64,000 bases of DNA, taken from the IMG/VR virus record IMGVR_UViG_3300037470_000126, positions 18,369 to 82,368 of that record, one strand, 5' to 3'. The position numbers and the translations under genes are program-made. The notes below the pieces were generated by a model. The model saw only the letters and a program-made list of their open reading frames with translations. It was not told where the DNA came from and made no database searches. Origin of the DNA: a virus (taxonomy: Duplodnaviria; Caudoviricetes). Positions 14,102 to 30,669 of this stretch are shown piece after piece (the first letter of the stretch is position 1; every line of letters starts with the position of its first letter).

Positions 14102-14213
14102 CTTACTCAGCAGCACAGAACGACGCAAGACACGCAAGACAGTACAACTGATCTTTGACAACTCAACAGAGTGTGAATCGCAAGAAACGACACACAACAA
14201 CAGGAGTCAGACA

Positions 14214-14474: not shown

Positions 14475-14484
14475 CTAGTAGAGA

Positions 14485-14514
14485 AGCCCTGAGAGCTAAC
14501 ACAGTCTCAGGGCT
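14485..14514 (+). terminator. Terminator hairpin homologous to 11274..11305
   Basis: AGCCCTGAGA...TCTCAGGGCT. Confidence 0.65.
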
Positions 14515-14674
14515 TCTCGGCGTTCTCTGACGCTCTCGCGTATGCGACTCGACACAGAGCACACGAGACGCGCGTTAGGCGATTACACGCGCTCTCAGGA
14601 GCTCTCACATACGTAAGAGAGCGAGAGACATACACGCTCTGTCTCTCGCTCCCTATCACGCGCTCACGTCATTC

Positions 14675-14944
14675 TCAGACGTTGATACCCGGGATCCCGC
14701 TCCAGTGCTCGCTCTCGATGCCGACGGCACTCGGGTCTACTTGCCAGTAACCCTCGCAGCCGATCACCACGACCAGCTCACCCCGGGCAGCGTCGAACAG
14801 GATCCAGTGATCGGCAGCGCCGAAGTCTTCCCCGATCACTCCCTCGCACTCCGTGCACTTCGTGGTGGTCAGGATCTCGTTCGTCCCGCTCTTGAGCGCG
14901 TCATCCACCACGCTCAAGTAAATGAGTGTACGGGCGTCTCCCAT
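14675..14944 (-). CDS. Hypothetical protein with CxxC motif
   Basis: CTEC...H...CEG; GAGGGAG RBS; own promoter. Confidence 0.75.
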   Translation of the reverse strand: MGDARTLIYLSVVDDALKSGTNEILTTTKCTECEGVIGEDFGAADHWILFDAARGELVVVIGCEGYWQVDPSAVGIESEHWSGIPGINV

Positions 14945-14982
14945 GTTCTCTCCCTCGTGTTCTGTACGGGCTTACAACGAGA

Positions 14983-15011
14983 ACACTACGCCCCGCGCTA
15001 CACCATGTCAA
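14983..15011 (-). promoter_or_regulatory. Sigma70-type promoter
   Basis: TTGACA-17-TAGTGT. Confidence 0.8.
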
Positions 15012-15210
15012 GGACGCCGGCACAGCCACCAAAAAACCCCCGAGACACGGCCGATCTAGCGACTCTTGGTCTCAGGGGCTTCTGGCGTGGCTGTCTGGCA
15101 TCTGGCTAAGGAGACGACAACTCCCCCACACTCACAACGGGCGCGGCTGTAGCACTAACTGCCCCAGGCATTACCACGCGACCTAACTAACGTGGCACCA
15201 CTTACTTAAA

Positions 15211-15276
15211 GGCTCGGCGGGTTGGGCAAGGACGCCCAGATAGCATGTGGAAGCGATCTCCCCTACCCACCGAACC
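15211..15276 (-). ncRNA. Putative structured RNA (or branched terminator) downstream of tRNA-Ile
   Basis: 12-bp closing helix GGUUCGGUGGGU/ACCCGCCGAGCC enclosing two short hairpins. Confidence 0.4.
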
Positions 15277-15279
15277 TAG

Positions 15280-15356
15280 TCCCGCCAACTGGACTTGAAC
15301 CAGTGACCTCGGCTTTATCAGAGCCGCGCTCTTACCAACTGAGCTACGTAAGCAGG
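15280..15356 (-). tRNA. tRNA-Ile(GAU) with irregular acceptor stem
   Basis: D arm GCTC/GAGC, anticodon arm CGGCT-CTGATAA-AGCCG, T arm ACTGG-TTCAAGT-CCAGT; acceptor stem pairs only in a shifted register. Confidence 0.8.
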
Positions 15357-15357
15357 T

Positions 15358-15439
15358 GTCGCCCCTAGGTCTCCATTTATTCCCCGGCTGGGGAGACTCC
15401 ACGCAGTGCCGGGCCAGATGTTCCCGATGTCAGGGCGAC
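15358..15439 (-). ncRNA. Putative structured RNA between the two tRNAs
   Basis: 8-bp closing stem GUCGCCCU/GGGGCGAC and inner GUCUCC/GGAGAC stem. Confidence 0.35.
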
Positions 15440-15454
15440 TGGGGAACCAACGCG

Positions 15455-15528
15455 TACCCACGGAGGGATTTGAACCCCCAACCTTTCGGACCTAAACCGA
15501 ACGCCTCTCCCAATTGGGCTACGCGGGC
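15455..15528 (-). tRNA. tRNA-Leu(UAG) with short variable loop
   Basis: Acceptor GCCCGCG/CGTGGGT, anticodon arm TTCGG-TTTAGGT-CCGAA, T arm GGGGG-TTCAAAT-CCCTC, discriminator A. Confidence 0.9.
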
Positions 15529-15671
15529 TTAAACAATATCTCGCTATGGAGTTCTCAATGAACGGGGCTTCCTTAGCCCCCTCCCCACATGGACGATACG
15601 GGGAGGGGACCGGCAAGGAGCGTCAGGTTCGGACTGACAAGAAGAACAGTACAGACCGTCACGAGAGTCTG

Positions 15672-15884
15672 TCAACCCTCTACTTTCTTAGTGCGGGTTA
15701 CGGGCTGCCGCTTAGCCTTCCAGGACTTGAACCCCTTGATCGCCGCGGCCTCGTCTCGGTCGCTGAACATGTACCGCTTGCCCGTGCCAGGGTTGTTCCA
15801 CGAGGGCACCGCTCGCAAGAAGCGACGGAACTCCTTCGGGTCCAGGTCGTTGTCTCGGGCTACCTGCGCTCCACTCTTTGCCAT
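15672..15884 (-). CDS. Small putative winged-HTH DNA-binding protein
   Basis: AQVARDNDLDPKEFRRFLR...GKRYMF. Confidence 0.65.
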   Translation of the reverse strand: MAKSGAQVARDNDLDPKEFRRFLRAVPSWNNPGTGKRYMFSDRDEAAAIKGFKSWKAKRQPVTRTKKVEG

Positions 15885-15948
15885 GACTCGCTCCCTCGGT
15901 TTACGAGGGGTGTGGAAGAGTCACGTCCCACACCCCCCTGATAGATGC

Positions 15949-16713
15949 TCAGTGCGTGGCGTTCCAGGCTGCCACGATCTTCTTTACGTCCTCTGCGGTG
16001 AAGACGTAAGAGCCTCCGGCGCTCTGCTGGAAGTTGCGACCTACGGCCCACTTACGAAGCCACGCACGGAAGTTCTTTGCCGGCACACCCATCGCGGCTG
16101 CGACCTCAGGCGCTGAGAACGTCTTAGGAGCGCTCTCGTCAGTCGATGCGAGAGTCTGTGCCGGCGCTGCCTGCGAGGCGCTTACAGGAGCGCTCACGCG
16201 CTTCTCGGGCATACTCACGACGACCGGAGCGACTGTGTCAACGAACGTGATAGCCGCGGCGGCGATCCTCTCGTCTTTCGGCAGGTAAGAGAGGCCCTTC
16301 CAGCACGGCGGGCAGTAGTAGAAACGGCCACCCGTGGGAGCCTTCGGCTTGCGGTGCTTGGAGTAGCGCTTCCCGCACGAGTGCTCGGCGACCCAGCGGC
16401 CTTCGGGCATGTCAGCCTCAGTGCACGGCTTGGGATCCACCACGCCCAACTGGATCGCGACTGCCTGCCACTCGGGACCGTGCTTGGCTCCCGGCGTCAG
16501 GGCGTGGGCAATCTCGTGCCGGCACGTCTGCTCCACGTGCTCACGGTCGTGGCGGTCGACGTACGCGACGGACAGGAGGAGTTCCTTAGGGCCGTACTTG
16601 CACAGGCCCAGGGTCCTCATGCGATTCATCCAAGCGAACCGCCATCCCTGCTCCCACAGACCGTACTCCTTGATTAGGTGGGTCATCATCTGTGCGGCTT
16701 CTTCTCTATTCAT
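15949..16713 (-). CDS. SprT-like zinc metalloprotease with C-terminal HTH-like domain
   Basis: LGLCKY, HEIAHAL (HExxH), HGPEW, HSCG...YYCPPC. Confidence 0.85.
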   Translation of the reverse strand: MNREEAAQMMTHLIKEYGLWEQGWRFAWMNRMRTLGLCKYGPKELLLSVAYVDRHDREHVEQTCRHEIAHALTPGAKHGPEWQAVAIQLGVVDPKPCTEADMPEGRWVAEHSCGKRYSKHRKPKAPTGGRFYYCPPCWKGLSYLPKDERIAAAAITFVDTVAPVVVSMPEKRVSAPVSASQAAPAQTLASTDESAPKTFSAPEVAAAMGVPAKNFRAWLRKWAVGRNFQQSAGGSYVFTAEDVKKIVAAWNATH

Positions 16714-16720
16714 GTCTCCG

Positions 16721-16750
16721 ACTCTATACCTCGTGGTGCCGCACTGTCAA
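16721..16750 (-). promoter_or_regulatory. Sigma70-type promoter
   Basis: TTGACA-18-TAGAGT. Confidence 0.7.
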
Positions 16751-16825
16751 CCCGCACGCATCAAGGAGTTTCCAGCGAAAAGCCCCGGGAGTGTGACGGC
16801 TCCCGGGGCCTCTCTACTCCCGACA

Positions 16826-17161
16826 CTACGGCCGGCAGACCAACTTGCCGATCGGCTCGTGGCCCGTGGCGATGCGCACGTTCCGACGCGCGACCTGGGC
16901 GAGAGCGGCCAGCGTCTCCGTCTCGGAGAACCACTGGTTCTTGAAGACCAGCCACTCGGCCGGCGGACGGTGGGGGTTGTCGGCGCTCCACGCCTCGTCG
17001 GGCGTGTTGATCGCGGCCCACTGGTCGGGGGTGCAGTCCTCGCCGCTCAGGTGCTCAGCCATGCGACGCTCCGCCTGGTCACGGAGCCACCAGAGCATCT
17101 CCAGGTTGCCGGACTTACGCCCGAAGGCCTTGGTCACGCGGACGGTCTCGACAATCTCCAC
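16826..17161 (-). CDS. Hypothetical protein
   Basis: GTG start after GAGGAG; own promoter. Confidence 0.7.
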   Translation of the reverse strand: MEIVETVRVTKAFGRKSGNLEMLWWLRDQAERRMAEHLSGEDCTPDQWAAINTPDEAWSADNPHRPPAEWLVFKNQWFSETETLAALAQVARRNVRIATGHEPIGKLVCRP

Positions 17162-17199
17162 GGCATCTCCTCGTGTCGTCGGTCTTACTGACAGGGCTA

Positions 17200-17229
17200 A
17201 CGTTACTCTTCCACACCTACCCGTGTCAA
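17200..17229 (-). promoter_or_regulatory. Sigma70-type promoter
   Basis: TTGACA-18-TAACGT. Confidence 0.7.
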
Positions 17230-17319
17230 CACGTCTCGGGAAGTTTCTCAAGCCGCCAAAGAACCCCTGCACCATCGGTACAGGGGCTCCCTGGGAGGGG
17301 TTCACGCCGGCGGCATGAA

Positions 17320-18093
17320 TTACTCGTCGTCGTCCGAGTCATCCTCGGCGACGTCCGTGGCCTTCTTGCGCGCCGGGGCCTTGCGACGGCTCGTGGTCGT
17401 CTTGCGCGCGGCCGGCTTACGAGCGGGCTTCTTCGGGGCCGGGGCCTCCTCGACCTCGGCCTCCTCCAGCTCCTCGTCGTCCGCGTCGTCCGCGTCATCC
17501 TCGTCGGCGGACTCCGACTCGGCCTCCGCAGCCAGGCGCTCCTTCTCGGCCTTCTTCGCCGCGCGCTTGGCCTCCGCGGTCTCCTTGAGCTTGTCCAGGG
17601 CCAGCTTCTGGGCCTCGTCGATCTCGCCGGCCTTGACCCGCTTGATGATGGCGACCACCTTCGGGTCGTCCACGCCGGTGAAGGAGTAGCGCTTGCCGTC
17701 CGCAGCCTCGCCCGGCAGCTCGCCGGCGGCCTTCATCTTGCGGAGCAGGACACGCAGGCCGCGGCCGTCGTAGCGCTTGCCGGTCTCCTTCTCGATGTGG
17801 TCCAGGAGCTCGGCGGTGCCGAACGCCACGTCATTGGCCTTCTTCGCCGGCTTCTTGGCAGCGGCCTTCTTGGCGCCGCGCTTGCCCTTGGCCTTCGGGG
17901 CCTCGTCCTCTTCCACCTCGTCCTCGTCGGCGTCCTCGACCTCGTCCAGCTCCAGGTCGTCCAGGTCGTCGCCGGTGCCGGCGATCTCGTTGTCGTCGTC
18001 CTCGACCTCGACGCCGTCCTCATCCTCTTCCAGCTCGAACTCCTCGACCTCTTCCTCAGCGGCCTTGGACTTCGCTCGGGTGCGAGTTGCCAT
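17320..18093 (-). CDS. Acidic/basic low-complexity protein with central HTH-like domain
   Basis: Long D/E tracts, PAKK/PARK repeats, central GLRVLLRK...GKRYSF. Confidence 0.8.
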   Translation of the reverse strand: MATRTRAKSKAAEEEVEEFELEEDEDGVEVEDDDNEIAGTGDDLDDLELDEVEDADEDEVEEDEAPKAKGKRGAKKAAAKKPAKKANDVAFGTAELLDHIEKETGKRYDGRGLRVLLRKMKAAGELPGEAADGKRYSFTGVDDPKVVAIIKRVKAGEIDEAQKLALDKLKETAEAKRAAKKAEKERLAAEAESESADEDDADDADDEELEEAEVEEAPAPKKPARKPAARKTTTSRRKAPARKKATDVAEDDSDDDE

Positions 18094-18169
18094 GGTGTGT
18101 TCCCCTCTCACGGGTAATACGTAGTTGGATGTTCGAGTCGTGGTGACCTCGTTTGTTGCGACGGAGACA

Positions 18170-18198
18170 ACATTACTTCCTCTCGGCCGATGTGTCAA
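18170..18198 (-). promoter_or_regulatory. Sigma70-type promoter
   Basis: TTGACA-17-TAATGT. Confidence 0.8.
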
Positions 18199-19685: not shown

Positions 19686-19953
19686 ACCCCTCAAGGTCTG
19701 TTTCCAGTTCGTCACCAAGGGCGGCGCGGTGATGGACACGGAGCCTGAAGAGTTCCCGAACATCCAGGCCGCCACCAAGCGGGCCCAGGAATGGATGGAG
19801 CTCAAGGGACGGGTCCTAGCCTTTACATCATTCGAGGGCTACGGCGTCAGTATGCGGACAGACGAGATCGAGCATATTACCGCCATGCCCGCAGCAAAGA
19901 TGGCCGAGCTATTCGACGCGGCCTCCACGGAAGGATTCCCGACCAATGAGTAA
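19666..19953 (+). CDS. Hypothetical protein
   Basis: TTG start after GGAGG; overlaps both neighbours. Confidence 0.55.
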   Translation: MTAHTSEPLKVCFQFVTKGGAVMDTEPEEFPNIQAATKRAQEWMELKGRVLAFTSFEGYGVSMRTDEIEHITAMPAAKMAELFDAASTEGFPTNE

Positions 19954-20998
19954 GACCCTGTTCCTCACGGGAGCCTCCGGTTTTGTGGGGTCCGCTGCTC
20001 TCCAGCACGTTCTGGAGAACACGGACTGGCGGGTCATCTGCCCCACGACCATGCGCCACTACGGGGACCAGTCCAGGCTAGTGGAGCTCCGCGAGAAGTA
20101 CGGCGAGCGTGTCCACGTCGTCCCCTGCGACCTTGCCATGCCGTTCCACCCTGAGCTGTTCGGCCTCGACGGTCCGGGCTCCGTGGACTTCATCTGGAAC
20201 ATCGCCTCGGAGTCTCACGTCGACCGCTCCCTAGGCGACCCTGAGGGCTTCATCAGGAACAACATGGAGCTTATGCTTAACGTCCTGCGGTTCGCCATTG
20301 ACGTCAAGCCGAGGCTGTTCCTGCACATGAGCACCGACGAGGTGTTTGGCCCGCAGTACGACGGCGACTCTCCCCACACGGAGTGGTCCTCGATCAAGCC
20401 CAGCAATCCGTACAGTGCGAGCAAGGCGGCCCAGGAAGCCATCGCCTACTCGTACTGGAGGGCATACGGCATCCCACTGGTGATCACGAACACCATGAAC
20501 CTCATCGGGCCTCGGCAGCACCCGGAGAAGTTCGTCCCCAAGATGATCCGCGCCCTCAAGGCCGGCGAGCCGCTGACTATCCACTCTAACCCGGACGGTG
20601 AGAGCGGGACCAGGTGCTGGATCGGTATCGAGGACTTCGCCAATGCGTGGCTGTGGCTAACGCGGAAGTTTGACCTCATCACCCAGTCGTCGGCACACGC
20701 GGATCACCTCACTTACTACCCGTCCATGCCGCGAGAGCCTCACCGGTTCAACATCGTGGGCCAGCGTGCGTCGAACCTGGAAGTAGCGGAACTCCTCGCC
20801 GAGATCATGGGTGTGGAAGAGCCGGACATTCAGATGGTGAACTTCCACACCAGCCGGCCGGGACACGATATGCACTACGGCCTAGACGGATCCAAGCTAG
20901 CCCACTTCGGCTGGACCCCGCCGTCGAACCTCACGGACCGCCTGATCGAGACCGTCCACTGGTACCAGGACTTCCCCTCTGCTCTGGAGACACGGTGA
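19946..20998 (+). CDS. rmlB: NDP-sugar 4,6-dehydratase (dTDP-glucose 4,6-dehydratase-like)
   Basis: TGASGFVG, ASESHVDRS, STDEVFG, NPYSASKA, HPEKFVPK, RPGHDMHY. Confidence 0.9.
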   Translation: MSKTLFLTGASGFVGSAALQHVLENTDWRVICPTTMRHYGDQSRLVELREKYGERVHVVPCDLAMPFHPELFGLDGPGSVDFIWNIASESHVDRSLGDPEGFIRNNMELMLNVLRFAIDVKPRLFLHMSTDEVFGPQYDGDSPHTEWSSIKPSNPYSASKAAQEAIAYSYWRAYGIPLVITNTMNLIGPRQHPEKFVPKMIRALKAGEPLTIHSNPDGESGTRCWIGIEDFANAWLWLTRKFDLITQSSAHADHLTYYPSMPREPHRFNIVGQRASNLEVAELLAEIMGVEEPDIQMVNFHTSRPGHDMHYGLDGSKLAHFGWTPPSNLTDRLIETVHWYQDFPSALETR

Positions 20999-21408
20999 AC
21001 CCGCCTCTATACCTCGTAGGTTCGTGGGGTATCGGTAAGTCCACCGTGGCGAACCAGCTAGGTATCCCCCACCTGGATCTGAGTAAGGACCTGAATCTCC
21101 CCGACACAATCGACCAACCGAGGCTGGTGTGGGAGAATATGATCAAGCCCGCTCTAGCCTACTCCGAGTTGCGGGGCGGCATGGTCATCTCCGTAGGTTC
21201 CCGGTGCATGGTCGGGGATGATGAGCGGGAGTGGGCACTCCGTGATTGGCTGGCTGATCTTAGCCCCCGAGTGGTTAGGCTAACTGGGGAACCCCGGCGG
21301 CCGTTGACTCGGTGCGAGGAGGCTATCCTGCCCGTTGCGGGTAAGTCAGTTCCTGCCCGCCCTCGGAGTGAAGCGGTAGCCCGGATCAAGGAATGGTTTT
21401 CACTATGA
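20995..21408 (+). CDS. P-loop kinase-like protein
   Basis: YLVGSWGIGKST Walker A. Confidence 0.65.
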   Translation: MNPPLYLVGSWGIGKSTVANQLGIPHLDLSKDLNLPDTIDQPRLVWENMIKPALAYSELRGGMVISVGSRCMVGDDEREWALRDWLADLSPRVVRLTGEPRRPLTRCEEAILPVAGKSVPARPRSEAVARIKEWFSL

Positions 21409-21950
21409 CCACGTTCTATCTCGTAGGCTCATCCGGAGTAGGTAAGACGACCACCGCGGGACTTCTGGCCAAGCGGGGGGTCTGTGTCCATCGTGAGGCG
21501 AGCACAGAGTCCAGGAACAAGGCTGGTGCCAAGTGGCACAAGTCGCCTGAGACCGACTGGCAGATCATCCAGCCGGTGCTGACTGACATGGAAGCTCACC
21601 AGGGATCCCTTCCCCTCATGGTTGTACTAGGAGCCGGCACACAGCTATACGGTCAGTTGAACAACCGGGCTATCCAGAAGTGGCTGGACTCTCGAAAGGA
21701 CCGGGTGATCTGGCTACAGTCTTCCCACGAGGAAGCTTACCGTCACTACCGGGAGCGGGCGGTTAAGCACCGTCACGGGGCCAGTAAGACCTTCCCCCAG
21801 TTCGTCAAGGTCGAGTTTGATCCGCTCCGCACCGACCTGTATTCCGTAGCAGGCCTGAGGGTGGACGTCAACGGGCAGACAGTCAGCCAGACAGCAGACG
21901 CGGTAACCAGCCTGATCAACCAGTACGGGAAGGCTTCGAACCATGCATAA
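21405..21950 (+). CDS. P-loop small-molecule kinase (shikimate/nucleotide kinase fold)
   Basis: YLVGSSGVGKTT, VVLGAG, VIWLQ. Confidence 0.75.
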   Translation: MTTFYLVGSSGVGKTTTAGLLAKRGVCVHREASTESRNKAGAKWHKSPETDWQIIQPVLTDMEAHQGSLPLMVVLGAGTQLYGQLNNRAIQKWLDSRKDRVIWLQSSHEEAYRHYRERAVKHRHGASKTFPQFVKVEFDPLRTDLYSVAGLRVDVNGQTVSQTADAVTSLINQYGKASNHA

Positions 21951-22737
21951 GATCCTGGACGCCCTCGCCGCCGGCAACTTCCATGAGCCGCTGGAAGCTA
22001 ACCCCCTCCGAGCCATGGGAGTTGGTCTCCCCAGTGATGAGGGCTACCAGGCCCTCCAAGAGGAGGTCCGGTATATCATGGCTCATCTGTCCCCGTCTCA
22101 CGTGGCATCCAAGGGCCATGGTACTAACTGGACCAAGCCGGTGGGGCAGGTGCGACAGTGGTCCCTCTTCAACACCCACAGGGACACGAGCAACACCAGC
22201 GACGATTTCAACTACCACAACATCCCCGACAAGCGACCCGTTCCCGGGTACAGCTTCCTCGGGAAGATGTGCCGAACTCTGCCGAGTCTGGTGAACATGC
22301 GGCTTAACGCCATGTCGCCTGGCGGTGCCTTGTCGCCCCATGAGGAGCACCTACCGATCGCCATCGGCTCAGACAAGGTGGCTTTCCGTTGCCGCTTCCA
22401 CCTCCCTGTGTTCACCAACCCAGAATCGGTCATGCTGGCCGACGGGGACCTGTTCCACTTCCAGGGAGGCAAGGTCTATGCCTTCAACAACGGGTGTATC
22501 CACTCCGCGAAGAACGACGGCGGCAGTGAGAGGGTACACCTGGTCTGGGACCAGCTCATGACCGAGCGGGCTATCCAAGCCATGTTTGATGGTGACCGAA
22601 CTCCGTCCTGGCTCATCTCTGCCGTCCAGCCGATCAACCCGGTGGGTCACCTGGATGTGACCAAGTTCCAGCCGTCAGGCGGCATGAAGCGCCAGGAGTT
22701 CGACCGCCGTCGAGTCGTGTTCCACCCGGGGGTCTGA
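21943..22737 (+). CDS. Aspartyl/asparaginyl beta-hydroxylase family 2OG-Fe(II) dioxygenase
   Basis: MSPGGALSPHEEH, RFHLPVFTN, FNNGCIHSAKN, RVHLVWD. Confidence 0.82.
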   Translation: MHKILDALAAGNFHEPLEANPLRAMGVGLPSDEGYQALQEEVRYIMAHLSPSHVASKGHGTNWTKPVGQVRQWSLFNTHRDTSNTSDDFNYHNIPDKRPVPGYSFLGKMCRTLPSLVNMRLNAMSPGGALSPHEEHLPIAIGSDKVAFRCRFHLPVFTNPESVMLADGDLFHFQGGKVYAFNNGCIHSAKNDGGSERVHLVWDQLMTERAIQAMFDGDRTPSWLISAVQPINPVGHLDVTKFQPSGGMKRQEFDRRRVVFHPGV

Positions 22738-22738
22738 C

Positions 22739-23395
22739 ATGACCAGTATCGGAATGTGGTGGTTCAGACCGTCCGCTGGTACCACCAACTTCGGGGATGA
22801 GCTAGGTCCACAGATTGTCACCCGTCTGGGTTACGAGGTCCATCGGGTCCCTCTCGAACAAGCGGACCTAGTAGGCTGCGGGAGCATCCTAGGCATTGTG
22901 GACGCGAAAGCCAAGCCTGGTACCATAGTGTGGGGATCCGGCCTGATCATGCCCACGGACAACATGAGGGCCAAGAGATTCAACGTCAAGGCAGTGCGAG
23001 GCGTGATCTCAGCACGTCGGTTGGGTGTGGAAGTTCCTCTTGGTGATCCAGGCATCCTGGTGCCCCTGCTGTGGCCTCGAAAGGTTAACCCCCGTCACCG
23101 CATCGGGGTTATCCCTCACTACGTGGATAAGAACCGGTATGCCTGGGCGGACAAGGTAATCAATCCCAAGTCACCGGTAGACCAGGTTATCGAGGAGATC
23201 CAGTCGTGCCACACCATCGCCTCGTCTAGTCTCCACGGGCTCATCATCGCCGAAGCCTACGGCATTCCTGCCGTCCGCCTTTACCACCCAAAGGTAGTCG
23301 GGGATGAGTTCAAGTGGGTGGACTACATGAGCGCGTTTGCCGGCACGTCTATGTCAGAAGCGCAACGGGGGTTGATTAGGGCGCTTGAATCATGA
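22739..23395 (+). CDS. Polysaccharide pyruvyl transferase-like protein (ExoV type)
   Basis: NFGDEL, WGSG, AVRG, GDPG, SSSLHGLIIAEAYGIPA. Confidence 0.85.
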   Translation: MTSIGMWWFRPSAGTTNFGDELGPQIVTRLGYEVHRVPLEQADLVGCGSILGIVDAKAKPGTIVWGSGLIMPTDNMRAKRFNVKAVRGVISARRLGVEVPLGDPGILVPLLWPRKVNPRHRIGVIPHYVDKNRYAWADKVINPKSPVDQVIEEIQSCHTIASSSLHGLIIAEAYGIPAVRLYHPKVVGDEFKWVDYMSAFAGTSMSEAQRGLIRALES

Positions 23396-24030
23396 GTGAG
23401 CTAGAGATCCTAGACAGTATCACTGTGGTGATCCCCGTACACCCCGAACGTGTCCGTAACGGTATGCTAGAGCGTGCTCTTAGCTCTGTGAGAAGTCAGA
23501 CACTGCCGGCGGACGAGATCATCGTGGTTGAGGACCATGAGGGTCAAGGAGCCGCCAGGACCCGCCATCAAGGCCTCATGGAAGTAACCTCCGAATGGGT
23601 GGCCTTCCTGGACTCCGATGATGAGTTCCTGCCTCGTCACCTGGAGAGGCTCATGGCTTGTGCCCAGGAGACCGAGGCGGACTTTGTATACTCGTGGTAC
23701 AAGATCAAAGGTGCCTCGGATCCCATGCCTAACCGCTTCGGCAAGGCATGGAACCCAGATAAGCCCGCCCTAACCACCATTACCGTAATGGTTAAGACCC
23801 AGCTAGCCCAACGAGTGGGTTTTCACCCTGACCCCAACCGCGTTAAGAATAGCGGTGAGGACATGATGTTTGTCCGCGGGTGTAACAGTCTGGGTGCTAA
23901 GATTGTGCATCTCCCAGAGAGGACCTGGGTATGGCACCATCACGGCGGCAACACATCAGGCCTGAACACTCGGGGTGACGCGGTACCACCAGCACCCGTC
24001 AAGGGGCGTAAGAAGGGAAGGAGGAAGTAA
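23392..24030 (+). CDS. Glycosyltransferase family 2
   Basis: VVIP, IIVVED, WVAFLDSDD, GED. Confidence 0.92.
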   Translation: MSELEILDSITVVIPVHPERVRNGMLERALSSVRSQTLPADEIIVVEDHEGQGAARTRHQGLMEVTSEWVAFLDSDDEFLPRHLERLMACAQETEADFVYSWYKIKGASDPMPNRFGKAWNPDKPALTTITVMVKTQLAQRVGFHPDPNRVKNSGEDMMFVRGCNSLGAKIVHLPERTWVWHHHGGNTSGLNTRGDAVPPAPVKGRKKGRRK

Positions 24031-24626
24031 TGGACATCACGGTTATCATTCCTACGATCCCCAGCCGTAAGGAGAGACTGTACGAGGCGATGGCGTCTGT
24101 TAGCTCCCAGACCAAGCCAGCTACTAGCATCATCATCCAGGCTGATCTGAACTGGGAAGGTTCAGCGGAGACGAGGAACAGGGCCCTGAAAGCTGTCAGG
24201 ACGCCGTGGGTCGCCTTCCTAGACGACGACGACTCATTCCTTCCGCATCACCTAGAGAGGCTGTCTCAGGCGCTCTCAGACGCCCAGGCGGACGTGGCGT
24301 ACCCTCTGCCCCTGGTGCTGGACAAGAACGGCAGGAAGATCCCGAGGCAGAGGGATTGGGGTGGCGGCCCCGAGTTCAGCGGCGAGACACTGGAACAGCG
24401 GTCGTACATCAACATCTGTTCAGTGGTCCGCACAGAGCTAGCGGTGGGTGTGGGAGGGTTTGAGTTCGTCCGAGGATCTACCGGCCAGCTTAACGACGAC
24501 CATGGTTTCTATCTCAAGCTATACCGAGCTGGTGCCAAGTTCGTCCATGTTCATGAGCCTACTTTCATCTGGAATCACCACGGTGGAAACACCTCGGGCC
24601 AACCCGGTAAAGGAGATGCCGCATGA
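24030..24626 (+). CDS. Glycosyltransferase family 2
   Basis: VIIPT, TRNRAL, WVAFLDDDD, DD.GFY; paralogous to the upstream GT2 (both end WxHHGGNTSG). Confidence 0.92.
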   Translation: MDITVIIPTIPSRKERLYEAMASVSSQTKPATSIIIQADLNWEGSAETRNRALKAVRTPWVAFLDDDDSFLPHHLERLSQALSDAQADVAYPLPLVLDKNGRKIPRQRDWGGGPEFSGETLEQRSYINICSVVRTELAVGVGGFEFVRGSTGQLNDDHGFYLKLYRAGAKFVHVHEPTFIWNHHGGNTSGQPGKGDAA

Positions 24627-25087
24627 GGGTTTTCCTGGGCGGCTGGTCTGGCACGGGAAAGACTACGGTGGGCAATTACCTAAGATCTCATGGATGGGTA
24701 CATGTGGACGTGGAGGATATGTTCCACACCAGCCCTCGATCCTTCGGGACCTTTATTCGTAATCCCGCAGTGTGGCTTAGTGACAGGACTTACCCCACCG
24801 ACGACGTGGTCATAACCTGGGGCTACGGTCGAGAGGGCAAGCCAACCGTTGGGCGGATTCTGGACATCGGGTTCAAGCCAGTTTGGCTGACGGGAGACCT
24901 TAAGCACAGCCTGGCCAATAGAGCCCGACGGGGGGACAAGATCCAGCACCGACCAGACCTTGAGAGACTACAGGAGGTAGAATACCTCAAGGCGGGTTAC
25001 ACCTGGACTAACATCCAGGTCTTTCACCCAGATGGTACAATGCTAGCCACAAAGGAAGTGGCTGACATGGTATGTGACGCGGAGTAG
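24623..25087 (+). CDS. P-loop kinase-like protein
   Basis: VFLGGWSGTGKTT, HVDVED. Confidence 0.7.
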   Translation: MRVFLGGWSGTGKTTVGNYLRSHGWVHVDVEDMFHTSPRSFGTFIRNPAVWLSDRTYPTDDVVITWGYGREGKPTVGRILDIGFKPVWLTGDLKHSLANRARRGDKIQHRPDLERLQEVEYLKAGYTWTNIQVFHPDGTMLATKEVADMVCDAE

Positions 25088-25095
25088 GGGATTAA

Positions 25096-25734
25096 ATGTT
25101 CGTGGTAACTGGCTCTGGCCACTCGGGGACGGGCTGGGCATCCGAGTTCTTCACCCAGTTAGGATTCCCGTGCGGCCATGAGGAGTGGTTCAACGAGAGG
25201 CTTTACCGGGGCATGAGGACTTCGGACGCCTCTTGGGCGGCTGTACCTCGTCTGGCCGTGATCGGTGATGCCCCGCTGATTCTGCTCCTACGGGACCCGC
25301 TGGCTGTCGTCCAGTCGTTCCTACGGTCGGGAACTTACCGGAGCCCTAACACCTCGTGTGTCATGACTCGGTACACTTACGACCAGCTCCCCAGTCTCAA
25401 GTCTACTCCGGATGAGCTGGGGCGGTGCATCGTGAGAACTGCCGACTGGGACATGCCGGCGCAGAGCCATCACCTTCTCATGACCCTCCGCATTGAGGAC
25501 ATGGCCCTAAACTCTCCCGACTGGTGGGACGAGGTCAGCGCCATGGTCCGATTTGTTACCGGTGAGACCGTGAGCGAGGATAAAGCCGGTCAGGTTCTGT
25601 ATGACCTGGGCAAGAACTACAACGCCCACGCCCGGGACGCTCGGGTGGATCTGTCGTGGGAAGACATCCTGAAGCACCCGCTGGGATACAAGCTGGTGGA
25701 GCGGGCCACACAATTCGGATACGAGGTGAACTAG
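25096..25734 (+). CDS. Sulfotransferase-like protein
   Basis: FVVTGSGHSGT (5'-PSB-like) and LLLRDPLAVVQS (3'-PB-like), LRIED. Confidence 0.65.
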   Translation: MFVVTGSGHSGTGWASEFFTQLGFPCGHEEWFNERLYRGMRTSDASWAAVPRLAVIGDAPLILLLRDPLAVVQSFLRSGTYRSPNTSCVMTRYTYDQLPSLKSTPDELGRCIVRTADWDMPAQSHHLLMTLRIEDMALNSPDWWDEVSAMVRFVTGETVSEDKAGQVLYDLGKNYNAHARDARVDLSWEDILKHPLGYKLVERATQFGYEVN

Positions 25735-26717
25735 TGAGGATCTGGGGCTGGTCGGCAGACCGAGGCGGGTGTCAGGCTTACCGGGTTAGGTTCCCGTTCG
25801 ACGCCATCAAGGAACACAGGCCTGACCTGGTCATAGGCTGGGGTGGGGTAATTCCCAAGCCGGCACGAGAGACCGCGGACGTAATCGTAGGTCAGCGGGT
25901 GTGTAACCCCGGACCGTCGGAACTCTGGCAGAAGTGGGCTAAAGCCGGGGATCGGAAACTGGTCTATGAGATGGACGACGATCTCTGGAATGTGGATCCG
26001 TCCAACGAGAGGGCCTATTACTTCTTCCGGAACCTGGATATCCAAAGGCGGATCACAGAGAATATCCAGGTGGCCCACGCGGTTACTGTCTCGACCCCTG
26101 AGCTAGCCGAGATGGTACGAGAGAAGACCGGCCACGGTAACATCCACGTGGTGCCCAATGCTGTACCGGCGTGGCTTCTCGACCACCAGGCGGAGCGGAA
26201 TCATCACGTCGGCTGGGGAGGATCTCCCACACACCACGGAGACTTTGGTCTCCTTCGGCAGGGAATGAAGAAGTTCCTCCAGCACAACAAGGACAAGACG
26301 TTCCACTGTATCGGCATGAACTACGCGGAGTGGATGAAGCTCCCGCCGGCACAGTGCGCATTCACCAAGTGGGTTCCCACGCCCGAGGACTTCTTCCTCA
26401 CCATCGACTACTCGGTGGGTGTGGCACCCCTCGCGGACACCTTGTTCAACAGTTCCAAGTCGGACATTAAGTTCCTGGAGCTGGCCGCTCTCGGTATCCC
26501 CACTATCGCGTCTGACGTGCCGGCATACAAGTCCATCCAGGATGGCTGTAACGGCCTGCTCATCAAGAATGACCACGAGTGGGGCCGAGCCCTAAAGGCC
26601 AGCGTGGAACAGCGGGACTTCTTCCTGGAAATGGGGCAGGACGCAAAGGAGTATGTGGCCGCCAACCGGACGACCGCTCACACTGCCCCGCTCTGGTTGA
26701 AGGCTCTAGAATCTTGA
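25734..26717 (+). CDS. GT-B fold glycosyltransferase (family 4-like)
   Basis: YEMDDDLW, VTVST, VVPNAV, GWGGS, APL...FNSSKSDIKFLE...GIPTIAS. Confidence 0.88.
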   Translation: MRIWGWSADRGGCQAYRVRFPFDAIKEHRPDLVIGWGGVIPKPARETADVIVGQRVCNPGPSELWQKWAKAGDRKLVYEMDDDLWNVDPSNERAYYFFRNLDIQRRITENIQVAHAVTVSTPELAEMVREKTGHGNIHVVPNAVPAWLLDHQAERNHHVGWGGSPTHHGDFGLLRQGMKKFLQHNKDKTFHCIGMNYAEWMKLPPAQCAFTKWVPTPEDFFLTIDYSVGVAPLADTLFNSSKSDIKFLELAALGIPTIASDVPAYKSIQDGCNGLLIKNDHEWGRALKASVEQRDFFLEMGQDAKEYVAANRTTAHTAPLWLKALES

Positions 26718-26742
26718 CATAGGCCACTTGACAGACTACCAT
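26714..26742 (+). promoter_or_regulatory. Sigma70-type promoter upstream of the packaging genes
   Basis: TTGACA-17-TACCAT, with a second TTGACA at 26728. Confidence 0.65.
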
Positions 26743-26781
26743 AGATACGGTACACACCCTTCTTATCTTACGGAGTCTGCC

Positions 26782-27306
26782 ATGGGAAACAGGGAGCCGG
26801 GAACCACGTCTCGTCCGCGTCCTACCCACTTCAACAAGGAGAAGGAGGCCGCGGACGCCAAGCGGATGTTCCAGTTGCGGACGGGCCCGGACAGGCTGAC
26901 CCTCGCCGCCATCGCCGACGAGATGGGGTGTTCAGTCTTCCGGGTCCAGAAGCTCCTCAACAAGTACACCCCCAAGCTCCTTGAGAAGGACGCAAACGCC
27001 CACCGGGATATCGAGATCGGCAAGCTGGACCTCCTGGAGGAAAAGCTGTGGATGATGGTGGACGAGAATTACTACACGGTTTCTAATGGCCAGGTGGTCA
27101 TCTTCGAGACCGGCGAGCCAGTCCCGGACATCGACCCCGTCCTAAAAATCATCGACCGAATCCTCAAGGTGGCCGAGCGTCGATCCAAGCTCCTCGGCCT
27201 GGACAAGCCGATCCGCGTGGACGCCACCGTGACTCAGGTGGATTCCATGGACCGAGAACTGATGGAGATGATGCGTCAGGGGAGGGGCCAGTTCAATGGT
27301 AGTTGA
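26782..27306 (+). CDS. Terminase small subunit (HTH)
   Basis: LTLAAIADEMG HTH; ERRSKLLGLDKP; directly upstream of the large subunit. Confidence 0.78.
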   Translation: MGNREPGTTSRPRPTHFNKEKEAADAKRMFQLRTGPDRLTLAAIADEMGCSVFRVQKLLNKYTPKLLEKDANAHRDIEIGKLDLLEEKLWMMVDENYYTVSNGQVVIFETGEPVPDIDPVLKIIDRILKVAERRSKLLGLDKPIRVDATVTQVDSMDRELMEMMRQGRGQFNGS

Positions 27307-28939
27307 CCCCCTGGGTCCCGACCTTCACTCTGGCAACTTCGACCATATCGCTTACATGGAGTGGTGTGTTAACCATGTAATGCGTGAAGACGGGGTACGG
27401 GGGACCTTTGATGATCCAGATTTCGGCCTGACTCTATGGGCTCGGGATGAACATGATGAGTTCCTCCTGAACGAGGCGGGAGAGAGATTTCCCGTACTAA
27501 CCGCCAAGGGAAGAATCTTCGCCACCGAAGATAATCCCATGCTGTTTGCCTTGGTCTACTGTCGGAATCTGATCTCCGATGACTCGGGACACGTTTCGTT
27601 TGCCGACCTTCACCTAGAGCTATGCCGCTACGTCCAGGCGTGGAAGAAGGCTATTGAGCCGAGGGAGTCTCGGACGGCATTCGTCGCTCCTCGTGAGGCC
27701 GGCAAGTCCTCATGGGTGTTCAAGATCCTGCCTCTGTGGGCAGCGGCTCATAGACACATCCGGTTCGTGGCCGCGTTCTCATCGTCGGCAACCCAGGCAC
27801 AGAAGCACCTGTCCGGCTTCAAGCGGCAGCTAGACACCAACGTCAAGATCCGCGAGGACTACCCGGATCTATGCAAGCCAGCCAAGAGGCCTAGCGGCGG
27901 TAACGTCTCCGACACTCAGGAGATGTACCACTCCACGTCCGGGTTTACGTTCACCGCGGCCGGTCTCGACTCCGAGATCCTGGGTCTGGTCGACCCGAAC
28001 AACGTCCGTCCTGACTTGATTATCCTAGATGACATCGAGCCGGACGAGTCGAATTACAGCCAGTACCAGATGAAGAAGCGCCGTACCACGATCCTGGACA
28101 CGGTGCTCCCGATGAACGAGCGGGCACACGTTGCCCTCATCGGTACTGTGACCATGCCTCAGTCTATCGTCCACCAGTTGGTCGAGACTGTCACCACGGA
28201 CAAAGAAGTTCCACAGTGGATCAAGGACGAGAAGTTCAACGTCCGCTACCTGGAGCCTATTGTCAACGAGGAGGACGGCGAGCGTCGCTCCATCTGGCCG
28301 TTCAAGTGGCCGCTGGTCTACCTGGAAGAGATCGAACATACACGGTCCTACAAGAAGAACTTTAAGAACCAGCCCGTCTCCGAGGATGGAGACTACTGGA
28401 CCGAGCAGGACTTCCAGTACGGGGACGTTCCACACCCAACGCATGTGGTCCTCCAGATTGACCCCGCCGTCACGAGTAAGCAAACCTCGGACTATTACGG
28501 GGTAGCGGTGGTCGCCTTTGACCGAGACGCGCGTAAGTGTGCGGTGTGGTACTGCCGGCAGTTCAAGGTCTCGCCCAAGGTCATGCGGAAGAAGGCTCTT
28601 GAGATCTGCGAGCTATTCCCCCAGATCGGCCGTATCCGGGTCGAGGCTAACCAGGGTCACGAGACATGGCATTCTGTATTCCACGATATGCCGGTTAAGG
28701 TAATCCTCCATTCGGAGTCCATCCCTAAGAAGGTACGGGCCTCGCATACGTTGAATCACTACCAGCGCGGTCGGGTGTTTCATACCAAGAAGTTCCCCGA
28801 GCTGGAAGACCAAATGCTCGCCTTTCCACACGTTCTCAATGATGATATGGTTGATGCCGTAGGTGCGGGTACGAGTTACTTCCTCAAGCCCATGAAGAAA
28901 GCCGGCGGCAACTCCATTCCCTATGGCGGGAGGTCCTAG
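27296..28939 (+). CDS. terL: Terminase large subunit
   Basis: APREAGKS Walker A, LIILDDIE Walker B, IDPA, DDMVDA nuclease motifs. Confidence 0.93.
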   Translation: MVVDPLGPDLHSGNFDHIAYMEWCVNHVMREDGVRGTFDDPDFGLTLWARDEHDEFLLNEAGERFPVLTAKGRIFATEDNPMLFALVYCRNLISDDSGHVSFADLHLELCRYVQAWKKAIEPRESRTAFVAPREAGKSSWVFKILPLWAAAHRHIRFVAAFSSSATQAQKHLSGFKRQLDTNVKIREDYPDLCKPAKRPSGGNVSDTQEMYHSTSGFTFTAAGLDSEILGLVDPNNVRPDLIILDDIEPDESNYSQYQMKKRRTTILDTVLPMNERAHVALIGTVTMPQSIVHQLVETVTTDKEVPQWIKDEKFNVRYLEPIVNEEDGERRSIWPFKWPLVYLEEIEHTRSYKKNFKNQPVSEDGDYWTEQDFQYGDVPHPTHVVLQIDPAVTSKQTSDYYGVAVVAFDRDARKCAVWYCRQFKVSPKVMRKKALEICELFPQIGRIRVEANQGHETWHSVFHDMPVKVILHSESIPKKVRASHTLNHYQRGRVFHTKKFPELEDQMLAFPHVLNDDMVDAVGAGTSYFLKPMKKAGGNSIPYGGRS

Positions 28940-30669
28940 TGGCAATCGAGGATAAGGTGGTGGACGGCATGGTCGTTCCCACCTCGAAGGACTCAGGGGG
29001 TGAAACCCCAAACCAGTCAGCCGGCGTGCCTGAGCCGAAGGTCTGGGAAGACCTGGAAGAGGCTCTGGAAGATCTAGAAGCCGCCATTCCCGGCTACCAG
29101 AAGGCAGAGGAGTATTACGAGGGAACGGTCAAGGAGAAGTTCCTCAACAAGGCCGTACAGGCTCTCCTGACGGGCTCCGATACAGACTTCCGAGTCAACC
29201 TAGCTGGCCGTGTTGTTGACGCCGTACAGGACCGTATGGAGGTCGCAGCGGTCACGGCGGAGCCTATCGACGACGACGAGGACGGCATCCCCGACTCGGA
29301 GCAGGACGATACCGACAACCAGACCGAGGACGCCACCGGCTTCGAGGGTGACGAACCCGAAGAAGAGGTCATGTCCGAGGAGGAGAAGCTCCTGGACGAG
29401 GCCATCTCCAAGATCTGGCGTGACAATGAAATGGACATCGAGGCTCCCGAGGTCCACCAGAAGATGCTCACGTACGGGGACGCCTACCTGTTCGTGGGTC
29501 TCTCCGACGACGAGGAAGAAGAGGACAGGGTGGACCTGTTCTTCAACTCCCCGTTGAATGTCCGTATCCTGTACCAGGACGAGAACCCGCGGAAGAAGCG
29601 GCTGGCCATCAAGAAGTGGGAGGTGGGCCCGAAGAACAGTAAGAAGGTCCGCCTTAACCTGTACTACCCGGAGGGTACGTACAAGTTCATTTCCCAGGGT
29701 GCCGGCCGATCGTCCACGGGAACCTCCTCTGCCAACTTCGAGGTGTTCACGGACGACTCCACGGACGAGATGGGTTTCGTGGAGAACGAGACGGGAGAGA
29801 TTCCGTTCTTCCACTTCCGCACCGCCCGGCCATACGGTCGCCCTGAGCACAAGAAGGCTTTCGGTGCCCAGGACGCTCTGACCAAGCTGGTCACCAACAT
29901 GATGTCCACCTCCGACTTTGCGGCCTTCCCGCAGAGGTGGGCACTCCAAGAAACTGGCACCACCACGGACGATGACCTCGACTGGGACGGCGGGGACTCC
30001 GACGTTTCGGACGAGAAGAACCCGTCCACGCTCCAGTCCCAGCTCATCTCGGGTCCTGGTCGCATCTGGCCGCTCCGCAACATGAAGGCAGTTGGTCAGT
30101 TCACCGCGGCCGACGTGGAACAGTTCCTCAAGCCCATTAACCTGTTCACGGGTCTAATGGCTGCGGTCACTGCCACGCCAGTCTCGTACTTCCTGGTCTC
30201 GCTCGGGGCAACTGCCACACCAGCCTCCGGCGAGTCGCAGCGGAAGGGCGAGAGCCCGTTCCTTTCCAAGGTCAATGCCCGGCAGCTCTCCGCCGAGGCC
30301 TCGTGGCAAGATGCTCTAGGCTATGGCCTGGGTCTGCTAAACCTGGAAGCCGAGGTTCGTGTCCGCTGGGCACCGTCTCAGGTCGTCTCTGGCGAGTCGG
30401 GATGGAAGGCCGTACAGGAACAGCAGAAGGCGGGCGTACCGGTCCGTCAGACGCTCCTGGAAGCCGGCTACACGGACGCCGAGGTTACGTCGTGGGGCTA
30501 CACCGACGACAACCCGGATGGGCCCGGTATCGACCTCTCAGGCATGGTCAACCCGCCTCCCGTTCCCGGTCAGGCGCCCCCCACCCAGCCGACGGCACCG
30601 GGAGCACCAATCCCGACCGAGGCCCCCGCTCCCCCGCCGGCTCAGACGCCCGCCCCCGTAGGAGCGTAA
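28939..30669 (+). CDS. Portal protein (SPP1 gp6-like)
   Basis: YYEG, YGDAY, AFPQRW; position after terminase. Confidence 0.9.
   Translation: MAIEDKVVDGMVVPTSKDSGGETPNQSAGVPEPKVWEDLEEALEDLEAAIPGYQKAEEYYEGTVKEKFLNKAVQALLTGSDTDFRVNLAGRVVDAVQDRMEVAAVTAEPIDDDEDGIPDSEQDDTDNQTEDATGFEGDEPEEEVMSEEEKLLDEAISKIWRDNEMDIEAPEVHQKMLTYGDAYLFVGLSDDEEEEDRVDLFFNSPLNVRILYQDENPRKKRLAIKKWEVGPKNSKKVRLNLYYPEGTYKFISQGAGRSSTGTSSANFEVFTDDSTDEMGFVENETGEIPFFHFRTARPYGRPEHKKAFGAQDALTKLVTNMMSTSDFAAFPQRWALQETGTTTDDDLDWDGGDSDVSDEKNPSTLQSQLISGPGRIWPLRNMKAVGQFTAADVEQFLKPINLFTGLMAAVTATPVSYFLVSLGATATPASGESQRKGESPFLSKVNARQLSAEASWQDALGYGLGLLNLEAEVRVRWAPSQVVSGESGWKAVQEQQKAGVPVRQTLLEAGYTDAEVTSWGYTDDNPDGPGIDLSGMVNPPPVPGQAPPTQPTAPGAPIPTEAPAPPPAQTPAPVGA

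Follow-up and report, generated by a model that had tools for sequence, protein, structure and literature searches.

A ten-gene glycan synthesis and decoration cluster beside the packaging genes of a Streptomyces-type phage

A candidate virion glycosylation module

The DNA described here, a 64-kb stretch (the window) corresponding to bases 18369-82368 of a complete 82,368-bp virus record in IMG/VR, contains a block of ten genes, g1 to g10, whose predicted products would make and decorate a glycan. The reading that we favour, at a probability of roughly 0.45, is that this module would glycosylate the phage's own head and/or tail proteins and would include anionic decoration. A decorated-glycan pathway had been proposed in an earlier reading made from the letters alone (the sequence-only reading), and this part of the proposal stands on enzyme families, folds and motifs: a dehydratase, three glycosyltransferases (GTs), a PF04230 protein, a sulfotransferase fold and at least one small-molecule-kinase-like protein. 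The deoxysugar chain that went with it is not supported, as no reductase or epimerase follows the dehydratase in the cluster.

Across structural, replication and early genes the window shares ~78-80% nucleotide identity with Zuko and KimJongPhill, Streptomyces phages of cluster BR (genus Zukovirus), and the source phage is evidently a soil, Streptomyces-type relative of the two. The ten open reading frames (ORFs), which occupy 19946-26717 on the plus strand, form a contiguous and mostly overlapping series as described earlier, small corrections of start sites apart (Table 1). Neighbours are joined by overlaps of 1-8 nt or separated by gaps of no more than 8 nt, and promoter-like and terminator-like sites inside the block do not exceed shuffled expectation; the ten genes read as one translationally coupled block. 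The block is positioned where the left arm of Zuko and KimJongPhill starts, before the small-terminase-like gene, the large terminase, the portal and the capsid genes, with 10 nt between the end of g10 and the start of the small-terminase-like gene. The proposed coupling to the packaging operon amounts to adjacency on the same strand.

Table 1. Positions of the module genes and associated features, in window coordinates unless a locus or genome is named.
Feature	Position	Strand	Basis or remark
g1, nucleoside diphosphate (NDP)-hexose 4,6-dehydratase-like short-chain dehydrogenase/reductase (SDR), RmlB-like	19946..20998	+	PF01370 1.6e-39; PF16363 2.9e-33; TIGR01181 1.2e-56
g2, short P-loop protein, 137 amino acids, GSWGIGKST	20995..21408	+	No family match; weak, shorter g3 paralogue
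g3, shikimate-kinase-like P-loop protein	21405..21950	+	Atlas structure TM 0.73-0.78 to SKI clusters
g4, Fe(II)/2-oxoglutarate (2OG) dioxygenase, Asp/Asn beta-hydroxylase family	21943..22737	+	PF05118 2.3e-9, 37.7 bits (threshold 22.6)
g5, short polysaccharide pyruvyl transferase-family member	22739..23395	+	PF04230 1e-8, 35.9 bits (threshold 25.3)
g6, soluble GT2 (GT-A) glycosyltransferase	23392..24030	+	PF00535 6e-18; phrog_14775 4e-42
g7, second GT2	24030..24626	+	PF00535 4e-13; g6 paralogue, 38% identical
g8, P-loop protein, 154 amino acids, GGWSGTGKTT (Walker A)	24623..25087	+	AAA_18 3e-4, N-terminal 35 residues only
g9, minimal sulfotransferase-fold protein with both motifs for binding 3'-phosphoadenosine 5'-phosphosulfate (PAPS)	25096..25734	+	AF2 fold and invariant motifs; no sequence-family match
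g10, GT-B (GT4-like) glycosyltransferase	25734..26717	+	PF13692; PF13524; phrog_7162 5e-53
Small-terminase-like helix-turn-helix gene and large terminase	26728..28939	+	69% and 72% amino acid identity to KimJongPhill gp7 and gp8; directly downstream of g10
Sigma-70-like promoter match TTGACA-17-TACCAT	26714..26742	+	Between g10 stop and small-terminase-like gene; consensus match alone, match count in region not above shuffles
Right-arm locus of KimJongPhill	L121:13060-15533 (KimJongPhill 76059-78532)
Right-arm locus of Zuko	L124:1489-3981

Dehydratase and glycosyltransferases

The product of g1 has the signatures of the 4,6-dehydratases of the extended SDR family, namely GASGFVG (GxxGxxG), STDE (the (S/T)-D-E triad) and YSASK (YxxxK), which together with the PF01370 match bear out its assignment as RmlB-like. 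Against TIGR01181, an equivalog specific for dTDP-glucose, it scores 192 bits with a cut-off of 365, and because the score is below this cut-off the nucleotide and sugar specificity of g1 is not assignable. Counterparts are present in Zuko and KimJongPhill (77% amino acid identity) and in the Arthrobacter phage Atuin (45%).

The two GT2 enzymes of the sequence-only reading are likewise seen, g6 and g7 both matching PF00535 and being paralogues of one another, with the DxD-type motifs FLDSDD and FLDDDD. The orthologue of g6, KimJongPhill gp107 (55% identical), is sited in the right arm of that phage. For the GT-B enzyme, g10, the family matches agree with the earlier assignment, the start moving from 25656 to the GTG at 25734, where it forms a TAGTG overlap with the stop codon of g9. 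Relatives of g10 are found in Zuko (73%) and KimJongPhill (69%), with distant ones in Atuin and in Phapecoctavirus/Justusliebigvirus. In Escherichia phage PaulScherrer (L123:4707-7883) the distant g10 homologues are two tandem genes annotated 'putative disaccharide synthase' and two putative glycosyltransferases; the g10-like genes directly adjoin those for primase/helicase and DNA polymerase, and the same type is present in more than 100 Phapecoctavirus/Justusliebigvirus genomes.

The hydroxylase and its pyruvyl-transferase-like partner

The g4 protein lies above the PF05118 gathering threshold with its catalytic set intact, in agreement with the Asp/Asn beta-hydroxylase family to which it had been assigned. 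H133-x-E135, H187 and R197, which make up the Fe(II) triad and the 2OG-binding arginine, are invariant in 29 homologous sequences and line up with the HxD...H...R of L-proline cis-4-hydroxylase. Lipid A, ornithine lipids and free proline are further substrates within the PF05118 family. The neighbouring g5 passes the PF04230 threshold and has a matching fold, which upholds its description as pyruvyl-transferase-like. In the Atlas its features (0.97) and structure (TM 0.86-0.90) resemble short PS_pyruv_trans (PF04230) clusters that are mostly viral, and proteins of the g5 type also occur in Lak megaphages, Tunturi_5 and Carin-5. At 218 amino acids it is short against the ~280 positions of the PF04230 profile, to which it aligns with large gaps. 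Sequence searches of the PDB with g2, g3, g5 and g8 returned nothing usable, leaving g5 with no solved relative by sequence.

A single weak match to g4 was obtained among 50,697 isolated phages, and scans of IMG/VR with g4 alone and with the g4 alignment gave no other viral contig. The nearest g4 relatives for which gene order was read are on two actinophage-like contigs, L003 and L004. On L003 a hydroxylase 47% identical to g4 comes after a MuF gene and a capsid maturation protease resembling the phiAsp2 protein; on L004 the order is the major capsid gene, which matches annotated capsids in 776 phage records, then a hydroxylase (38%), a pyruvyl-transferase-like protein and a GT2. Hydroxylases 49% identical to g4 also sit on contigs of 50-55 kb.

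In bacterial and metagenomic DNA the homologues of g4 and g5 are frequently side by side. This adjacency holds for 22 of 70 metagenome loci, a set with many members not long enough for a judgement, and for 30 of 43 genome loci (including ~18 Streptomyces, Nonomuraea, Micromonospora, proteobacteria, acidobacteria, cyanobacteria and Chlamydiia), giving ~50 loci in total, and the pair is chromosomal in the ~18 Streptomyces genomes. Many of these loci share a seven-gene bacterial cluster encoding a Sulfotransfer_3 protein of ~700 amino acids, a 2OG-FeII_Oxy_3 protein of ~450, a hypothetical protein, a DUF1826 protein, a DUF6492-like protein, a pyruvyl-transferase-family protein and an AspH-like dioxygenase. 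Examples of this cluster are L122:2988-10696 on an Eleftheria terrae plasmid, L086, L015 and ~20 further loci in several phyla, sometimes with a B12 radical SAM enzyme in addition; a literature search found no paper on it. At other loci the g4 homologue has GT1, GT2, pyruvyl transferases, GH71, sulfatases, methyltransferases and S-layer homology (SLH) proteins as neighbours. Judged by the company it keeps, the g4/g5 pair is a functional unit associated with sulfation and glycans, and the phage set of g4, g5 and g9 echoes this.

The sequence-only reading had hydroxylation creating the acceptor for the glycan. This is not supported: bacterial g4 relatives sit in glycan neighbourhoods, and g4 may act on a sugar rather than on a protein residue. 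The pointers to its substrate go both ways, since the bacterial neighbourhoods would fit a sugar and the prolyl-hydroxylase-like enzymes of the related phages, described below, would fit a protein residue.

The sulfotransferase-fold protein

No Pfam, NCBIfam or PHROG family is matched by g9, and none of the 50,697 isolated phages has a homologue. Its fold was modelled with AF2 using six homologues (pLDDT 85.7), and in a VIA structure comparison the top 26 matches to the model are all sulfotransferases. The best are the olefin synthase sulfotransferase 4gox (Z 10.6, rmsd 3.7, 172 residues aligned) and TPST1 (Z 10.4, rmsd 4.3, 182 residues aligned), the TPST1/2 matches lying at Z 10.3-10.4 and StaL at Z 9.1. 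The top 50 Foldseek matches are also all sulfotransferases, with E values of 5.6e-3 or higher. Both PAPS-binding motifs, GxGxSGT (G6, G8, S10, G11 and T12) and RDPxxxxxS (R66, P68 and S74), are invariant in 7 sequences, and the spacing of 8 from the arginine to the serine is that of RNPKDVAVS in SULT1A1. On fold and motifs together g9 is accepted as sulfotransferase-like, as it had been called.

Homologues of g9 and g4 are recorded on Logan contigs of matching sizes (7445, 8450 and 13732 nt), which suggests that the two travel together. Comparison of g2, g3, g8 and g9 with the families of the bacterial neighbours by hhalign, including g9 with Sulfotransfer_3, gave nothing significant with what were crude ORF alignments.

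The P-loop proteins

The three P-loop kinases of the sequence-only reading hold in part: g3 has a shikimate-kinase-like fold, g2 is its weak paralogue (blastp E 6e-4 across 102 amino acids) with no family match, and g8 has the Walker A motif alone. For g3 the start is probably at 21405, the longest ORF beginning at 21393. Its family is rare, with 26 representatives among 1.84 billion proteins, and SKI (PF01202) is matched by 10 of the 20 members scanned. Where the family shows D-x-D, g3 has E31 and S33, the second aspartate being replaced by serine. The g8 protein is nearly an orphan, with two distant homologues in 5.8 billion proteins, and its fold predicted from the single sequence is of low confidence (pLDDT 34.5). 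Adenosine 5'-phosphosulfate (APS) kinase was considered as a role for the P-loop proteins and found no support, as none of them matches this family and g3 is shikimate-kinase-like; anywhere in the 82-kb genome APS kinase (PF01583) has no match at E ≤ 1.

Comparison with related phages

Zuko and KimJongPhill share with this phage the genome plan, an SDR and a GT-B gene upstream of the terminase, a g6-like GT2 and a 2OG dioxygenase. In both, however, the glycosylation genes are split over two loci, methyltransferases are present, the dioxygenase is of the PF13640 family, and g2-g5, g8 and g9 are lacking. The slot between the dehydratase and GT-B genes holds eight genes in this phage (g2-g9), one in KimJongPhill (a small methyltransferase) and none in Zuko. 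The second locus of the two relatives is in the right arm on the opposite strand and encodes a GT2 (51-55% identical to g6), an S-adenosylmethionine (SAM)-dependent methyltransferase, another GT2 and a 2OG-Fe(II) oxygenase; no trace of it was found in this phage. The oxygenase, KimJongPhill gp110 or Zuko gp109, is annotated as 'hypothetical protein' and matches PF13640 (2e-16). Its best solved relatives are the hypoxia-inducible factor (HIF) prolyl hydroxylase, OGFOD1 and prolyl 4-hydroxylase.

Each of the three genomes thus holds one dehydratase, one GT-B, two GT2s and one dioxygenase together with decorating enzymes. In this phage the set is gathered in one locus, the dioxygenase is from a different family, and the PF04230, sulfotransferase-fold and P-loop proteins take the place of the methyltransferases. 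Because the relatives pair their GT2s with a dioxygenase of another family, the dioxygenase would belong to the glycosylation system and decoration would be the variable part; the pairing of GT2s with a prolyl-hydroxylase-like enzyme in the relatives also agrees with the earlier view of the hydroxylase as part of the system. The comparison argues that the glycosylation system is conserved between relatives with its decorating part swapped, a neutral (methyl) set having been exchanged for a potentially anionic one. In Atuin the dehydratase (45%), GT-B (28%) and GT2 (41%) are scattered over 13 kb. A literature search found no paper on the glycans or the DNA of Zukovirus.

Proposed pathway

In the pathway that we propose, the decorated glycan would be made in the cytoplasm of the infected cell and attached to head or tail proteins before or during assembly. 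A host NDP-hexose would be converted by g1 to the NDP-4-keto-6-deoxyhexose, after which the GT-B enzyme g10 and the GT2 pair g6/g7 would begin and lengthen a short chain. The dioxygenase g4 with its partner g5 would tailor either the acceptor residue or a sugar, and g5 may add a pyruvate-derived group. The sulfotransferase-fold protein g9 would add sulfate from host PAPS, and g3, perhaps with g2 and g8, would add phosphate or activate a precursor. The host would supply the NDP-hexose, any reduction of the 4-keto group and the PAPS. The sugar, the order of the steps, the acceptor, the substrates and the transfer of pyruvate, sulfate or phosphate are what we infer from the gene content.

Family searches gave no transporter, flippase, polymerase or ligase match for any of the ten proteins, and a cytoplasmic acceptor would fit the lack of transporter and polymerase matches. 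That this acceptor is part of the virion is favoured by the adjacency of the packaging genes on the same strand and by the contexts on L003 and L004, positions comparable to those of the GT genes in the mycobacteriophage systems described below. The virion coat of the sequence-only reading keeps the support of context, the L003 and L004 hydroxylases adjoining a capsid protease and a major capsid gene; no acceptor tract was found to go with it, and its capsule-like character is not supported.

Several observations weigh against a virion target. The phage is known from a metagenome record alone, with no isolate, and 19 virion proteins have no mucin-like, collagen-like or C-terminal Ser/Thr tract; the search for acceptors in these proteins turned up only a Pro/Thr/Ala-rich tail on the portal and a Gly_rich_2 minor tail protein. 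The GTs resemble those of the mycobacteriophages Che8 and Corndog at the level of fold only and are not their orthologues. Gene position is an inconsistent clue, because g10 and g6 homologues in Justusliebigvirus, Atuin, KimJongPhill and Zuko sit among replication, RNA-repair or early genes. The bacterial g4/g5 pairs sit in an uncharacterised cluster with no phage genes, the phage has no APS kinase match, and g3 lacks one aspartate of the family D-x-D.

The tail at the C-terminus of the portal protein (window 30550-30669) is ~40 residues long (PPPVPGQAPPTQPTAPGAPIPTEAPAPPPAQTPAPVGA); no other tract of a linker-like kind, prone to hydroxylation or glycosylation, was seen in the virion proteins. 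Other virion genes of the window encode the major capsid protein (32827-33753), a head protein of 386 amino acids (34300-35460) and the tail tube (37946-38521).

A fuller version of the virion reading is a proteoglycan-like anionic coat on capsid or tail, in which the minimal sulfotransferase, the short pyruvyl-transferase-family enzyme and the shikimate-kinase-like kinases would cap a dioxygenase-dependent glycan by adding sulfate, a pyruvate-derived group and/or phosphate, and the g4/g5 pair would be a phage version of the bacterial tailoring cluster. With all of these parts together we regard it as doubtful.

Alternative targets

The enzymes might not all serve one pathway. The SDR, GT-B and GT2 proteins could form a glycosylating core while g2-g5, g8 and g9 were borrowed from a bacterial cluster for another substrate, such as a small molecule or a peptide, with some of the P-loop genes perhaps decaying. 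The bacterial g4/g5 cluster would fit this in having a sulfotransferase and a second dioxygenase with no classical GTs, as would the state of the P-loop genes, with g2 short, g3 lacking a family aspartate and g8 almost an orphan; AspH-like enzymes and sulfotransferases are also among the tailoring enzymes of lasso peptides (PMC10040529). We think such a mixture unlikely, however, given that the ten genes are tightly overlapped, with both GT2s lying between the g4/g5 pair and the sulfotransferase-like gene, that the matching Logan contig sizes suggest co-occurrence of g4 and g9 homologues, and that L004 joins hydroxylase, pyruvyl-transferase-like protein and GT2 beside a capsid gene. A host molecule is a further candidate as the target, whether a lipid-linked precursor of a cell-wall glycopolymer, a polymer of the teichoic or teichulosonic acid type, or a host protein, and its modification would change the cell surface, for example to block superinfection or to keep progeny from sticking to debris. 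The glycan neighbourhoods of the bacterial g4 homologues (GT1, GT2, pyruvyl transferases, sulfatases, GH71 and SLH proteins) and the chromosomal g4/g5 pair of ~18 Streptomyces genomes are in keeping with this, and cytoplasmic enzymes could modify undecaprenyl-linked intermediates for later export by the host. It too seems improbable, as flippase, polymerase and ligase families are matched by none of the ten proteins, the phage looks lytic, its relatives having no annotated integrase, and the three phage contexts of the hydroxylase are all packaging or head modules.

Hypermodification of the phage DNA, the alternative raised in the sequence-only reading, is the least probable of the targets considered. 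On this reading a ThyA-like enzyme would make a hydroxymethylated pyrimidine, to which sugar and decoration would be added after replication, as in the T-even phages; alternatively, the kinase and transferase steps would obey the logic of thymidine hypermodification. A ThyA-like enzyme, very divergent (25 bits to PF00303), is indeed encoded in the genome; it keeps the catalytic cysteine and has aspartate at the position of ThyA Asn177, the cytosine-type signature of established enzymology. Genes for dUTPase_2/MazG-like and dNMP-kinase-like enzymes accompany it. The T4 glucosyltransferases are GT-B enzymes, and the g10 homologues of Justusliebigvirus adjoin primase/helicase and DNA polymerase genes. 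Against this, six 6-bp palindromes are nearly absent from the whole genome (observed/expected: CTCGAG 0/27.5, CAGCTG 1/19.7, TGTACA 0/17.8, AGTACT 0/16, ATCGAT 0/12.4 and CTGCAG 0/10.2), an avoidance which indicates that the DNA would still be cut by type II restriction enzymes. The ThyA-like family extends to ~126 phages from other genera (Gordonia, Mycobacterium including Muddy, Serratia and others), which are absent from the g6 and g10 matches, and Atuin has the SDR, GT-B and GT2 with no ThyA-family gene. The hydroxylase g4 is of PF05118, the genome has no Tet/JBP (PF12851) match, and the dioxygenase of the relatives is prolyl-hydroxylase-like. Taken together, the avoided restriction sites, the independent occurrence of the GTs and the ThyA-like gene and the lack of a Tet/JBP match make bulk glycosylation of the DNA unlikely; a rare or site-specific modification would be compatible with these observations. 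A Tet/JBP-type role was also considered for g4 and rejected on its PF05118 family and the lack of a PF12851 match.

Relation to known systems

In mycobacteriophages, O-glycosylation of the virion is described for Che8 (gp108-110), Corndog (gp37-38) and Myrna, with C-terminal acceptor tracts on capsid and tail-tube subunits (Freeman et al. 2023, in the summaries PMC12363180 and PMC11256854). As here, the Che8 and Corndog enzymes are small soluble GT-A proteins of ~200-230 amino acids in actinophages, sometimes with methyltransferases, encoded at the edge of or inside the head and packaging genes: in Corndog gp37-38 immediately precede the capsid protease, in Che8 gp108-110 occupy the right end of the genome, and here g10 abuts the small-terminase-like gene. 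Che8 gp110 and Corndog gp38, however, are GT25 enzymes (PF01755), whereas g6 and g7 are PF00535 proteins. The best similarity is between g7 and Che8 gp108 (E 9e-5, 19% identity), and the best blastp match to the essential gp110 has an E value of 0.035. Genes for a dehydratase, a dioxygenase and pyruvyl-transferase-like, sulfotransferase-like and P-loop proteins are lacking from the mycobacteriophage systems. Their C-terminal acceptor tracts have no obvious counterpart here, the C-termini having no Ser/Thr-rich extension.

Another comparison is with the fibril clusters of Megavirinae, Mimivirus R135-L143 with the pyruvyltransferase L143 and Moumouvirus australiensis ma457-ma468 with a sulfate adenylyltransferase (SAT)/APS kinase and a sulfotransferase (PMC10117803, PMC9614988). 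There too a virus-encoded 4,6-dehydratase and GTs are combined with a pyruvyltransferase, or a kinase with a sulfotransferase, in decorating particle proteins. These clusters differ in belonging to giant viruses of eukaryotes and in having much larger multi-domain GTs, full nucleotide-sugar pathways, a bona fide APS kinase and no dioxygenase, and sulfation is unproven there as well.

Hydroxylation primes protein glycosylation in several systems, as with PhyA and Gnt1 acting on Skp1, lysyl hydroxylase and GT25 acting on collagen, and Mimivirus L230. The likeness here is a 2OG dioxygenase gene beside glycosyltransferase genes, and in the relatives a dioxygenase that is prolyl-hydroxylase-like; the differences are that the bacterial relatives of g4 are in neighbourhoods of the polysaccharide type and that no collagen-like or Pro-rich acceptor was found save the portal tail. 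With the glucosylation of hydroxymethylcytosine in T-even phages and with thymidine hypermodification, this phage has in common a cytosine-type ThyA-like enzyme, an NTP pyrophosphatase and a dNMP kinase elsewhere in the genome and a GT-B and P-loop proteins in the cluster, but it differs from them in its avoided restriction sites, its lack of a Tet/JBP match and the independence of its GTs from the ThyA-like gene.

Streptomyces phages were already known to have putative GTs, mycobacteriophages to glycosylate their virions, and giant viruses to have clusters containing a pyruvyltransferase or an APS kinase with a sulfotransferase. New here are this combination of genes for an actinophage, the exchange of one decoration set for another, like for like, among close relatives, a family of minimal sulfotransferases and the link to the bacterial hydroxylase/pyruvyl-transferase-like pair. 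Virion glycosylation, which shields particles from antibodies, has been proven in only a few mycobacteriophages, and to our knowledge a sulfated, pyruvylated or phosphorylated phage glycan has never been shown. An anionic coat could alter adsorption of the phage, binding to soil particles, stability or recognition by the immune system. The cluster is a compact ten-gene test case for which Zuko, lacking the insert, and KimJongPhill, carrying a set of the methyl type, are natural comparison genomes. The cluster further places the hydroxylase/pyruvyl-transferase-like pair of many Streptomyces and other bacteria in a testable context which, if the reading is true, would reveal the chemistry of the pair.

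Nucleotide genes and promoter-like sites elsewhere in the genome

Upstream of the window, at L120:12637-15974 (genome bases 12637-15974), is a nucleotide module encoding a dNK-like kinase, the dUTPase_2/MazG-like protein, a 350-amino-acid protein (phrog_13667) and the ThyA-like enzyme, a content that suggests a pathway for a modified cytosine nucleotide. Downstream of the ThyA-like gene, at L120:16026-16529, is a protein with an Endonuclease VII domain (PF02945, 3e-25), and at about this place KimJongPhill has an annotated dCMP deaminase. A ThyX-type gene is present in KimJongPhill (gp49, phrog_85), and its counterpart in this phage was not located. The palindrome avoidance is consistent with selection by type II restriction systems of Streptomyces.

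A terminase promoter had been placed at the end of the cluster. The TTGACA-17-TACCAT match at the stop codon of g10 is there, though as a match to the consensus alone in a region where such matches are not above shuffled counts. Sites of the form TTGACN-N16-18-TAnnnT number only three on the plus strand of the 64 kb, one being this match and another (32651-32680) lying before the major capsid gene; none was found upstream of the glycan cluster itself in the scan of the window. On the minus strand the early region has a dense array of eleven such sites at 5350-18198.

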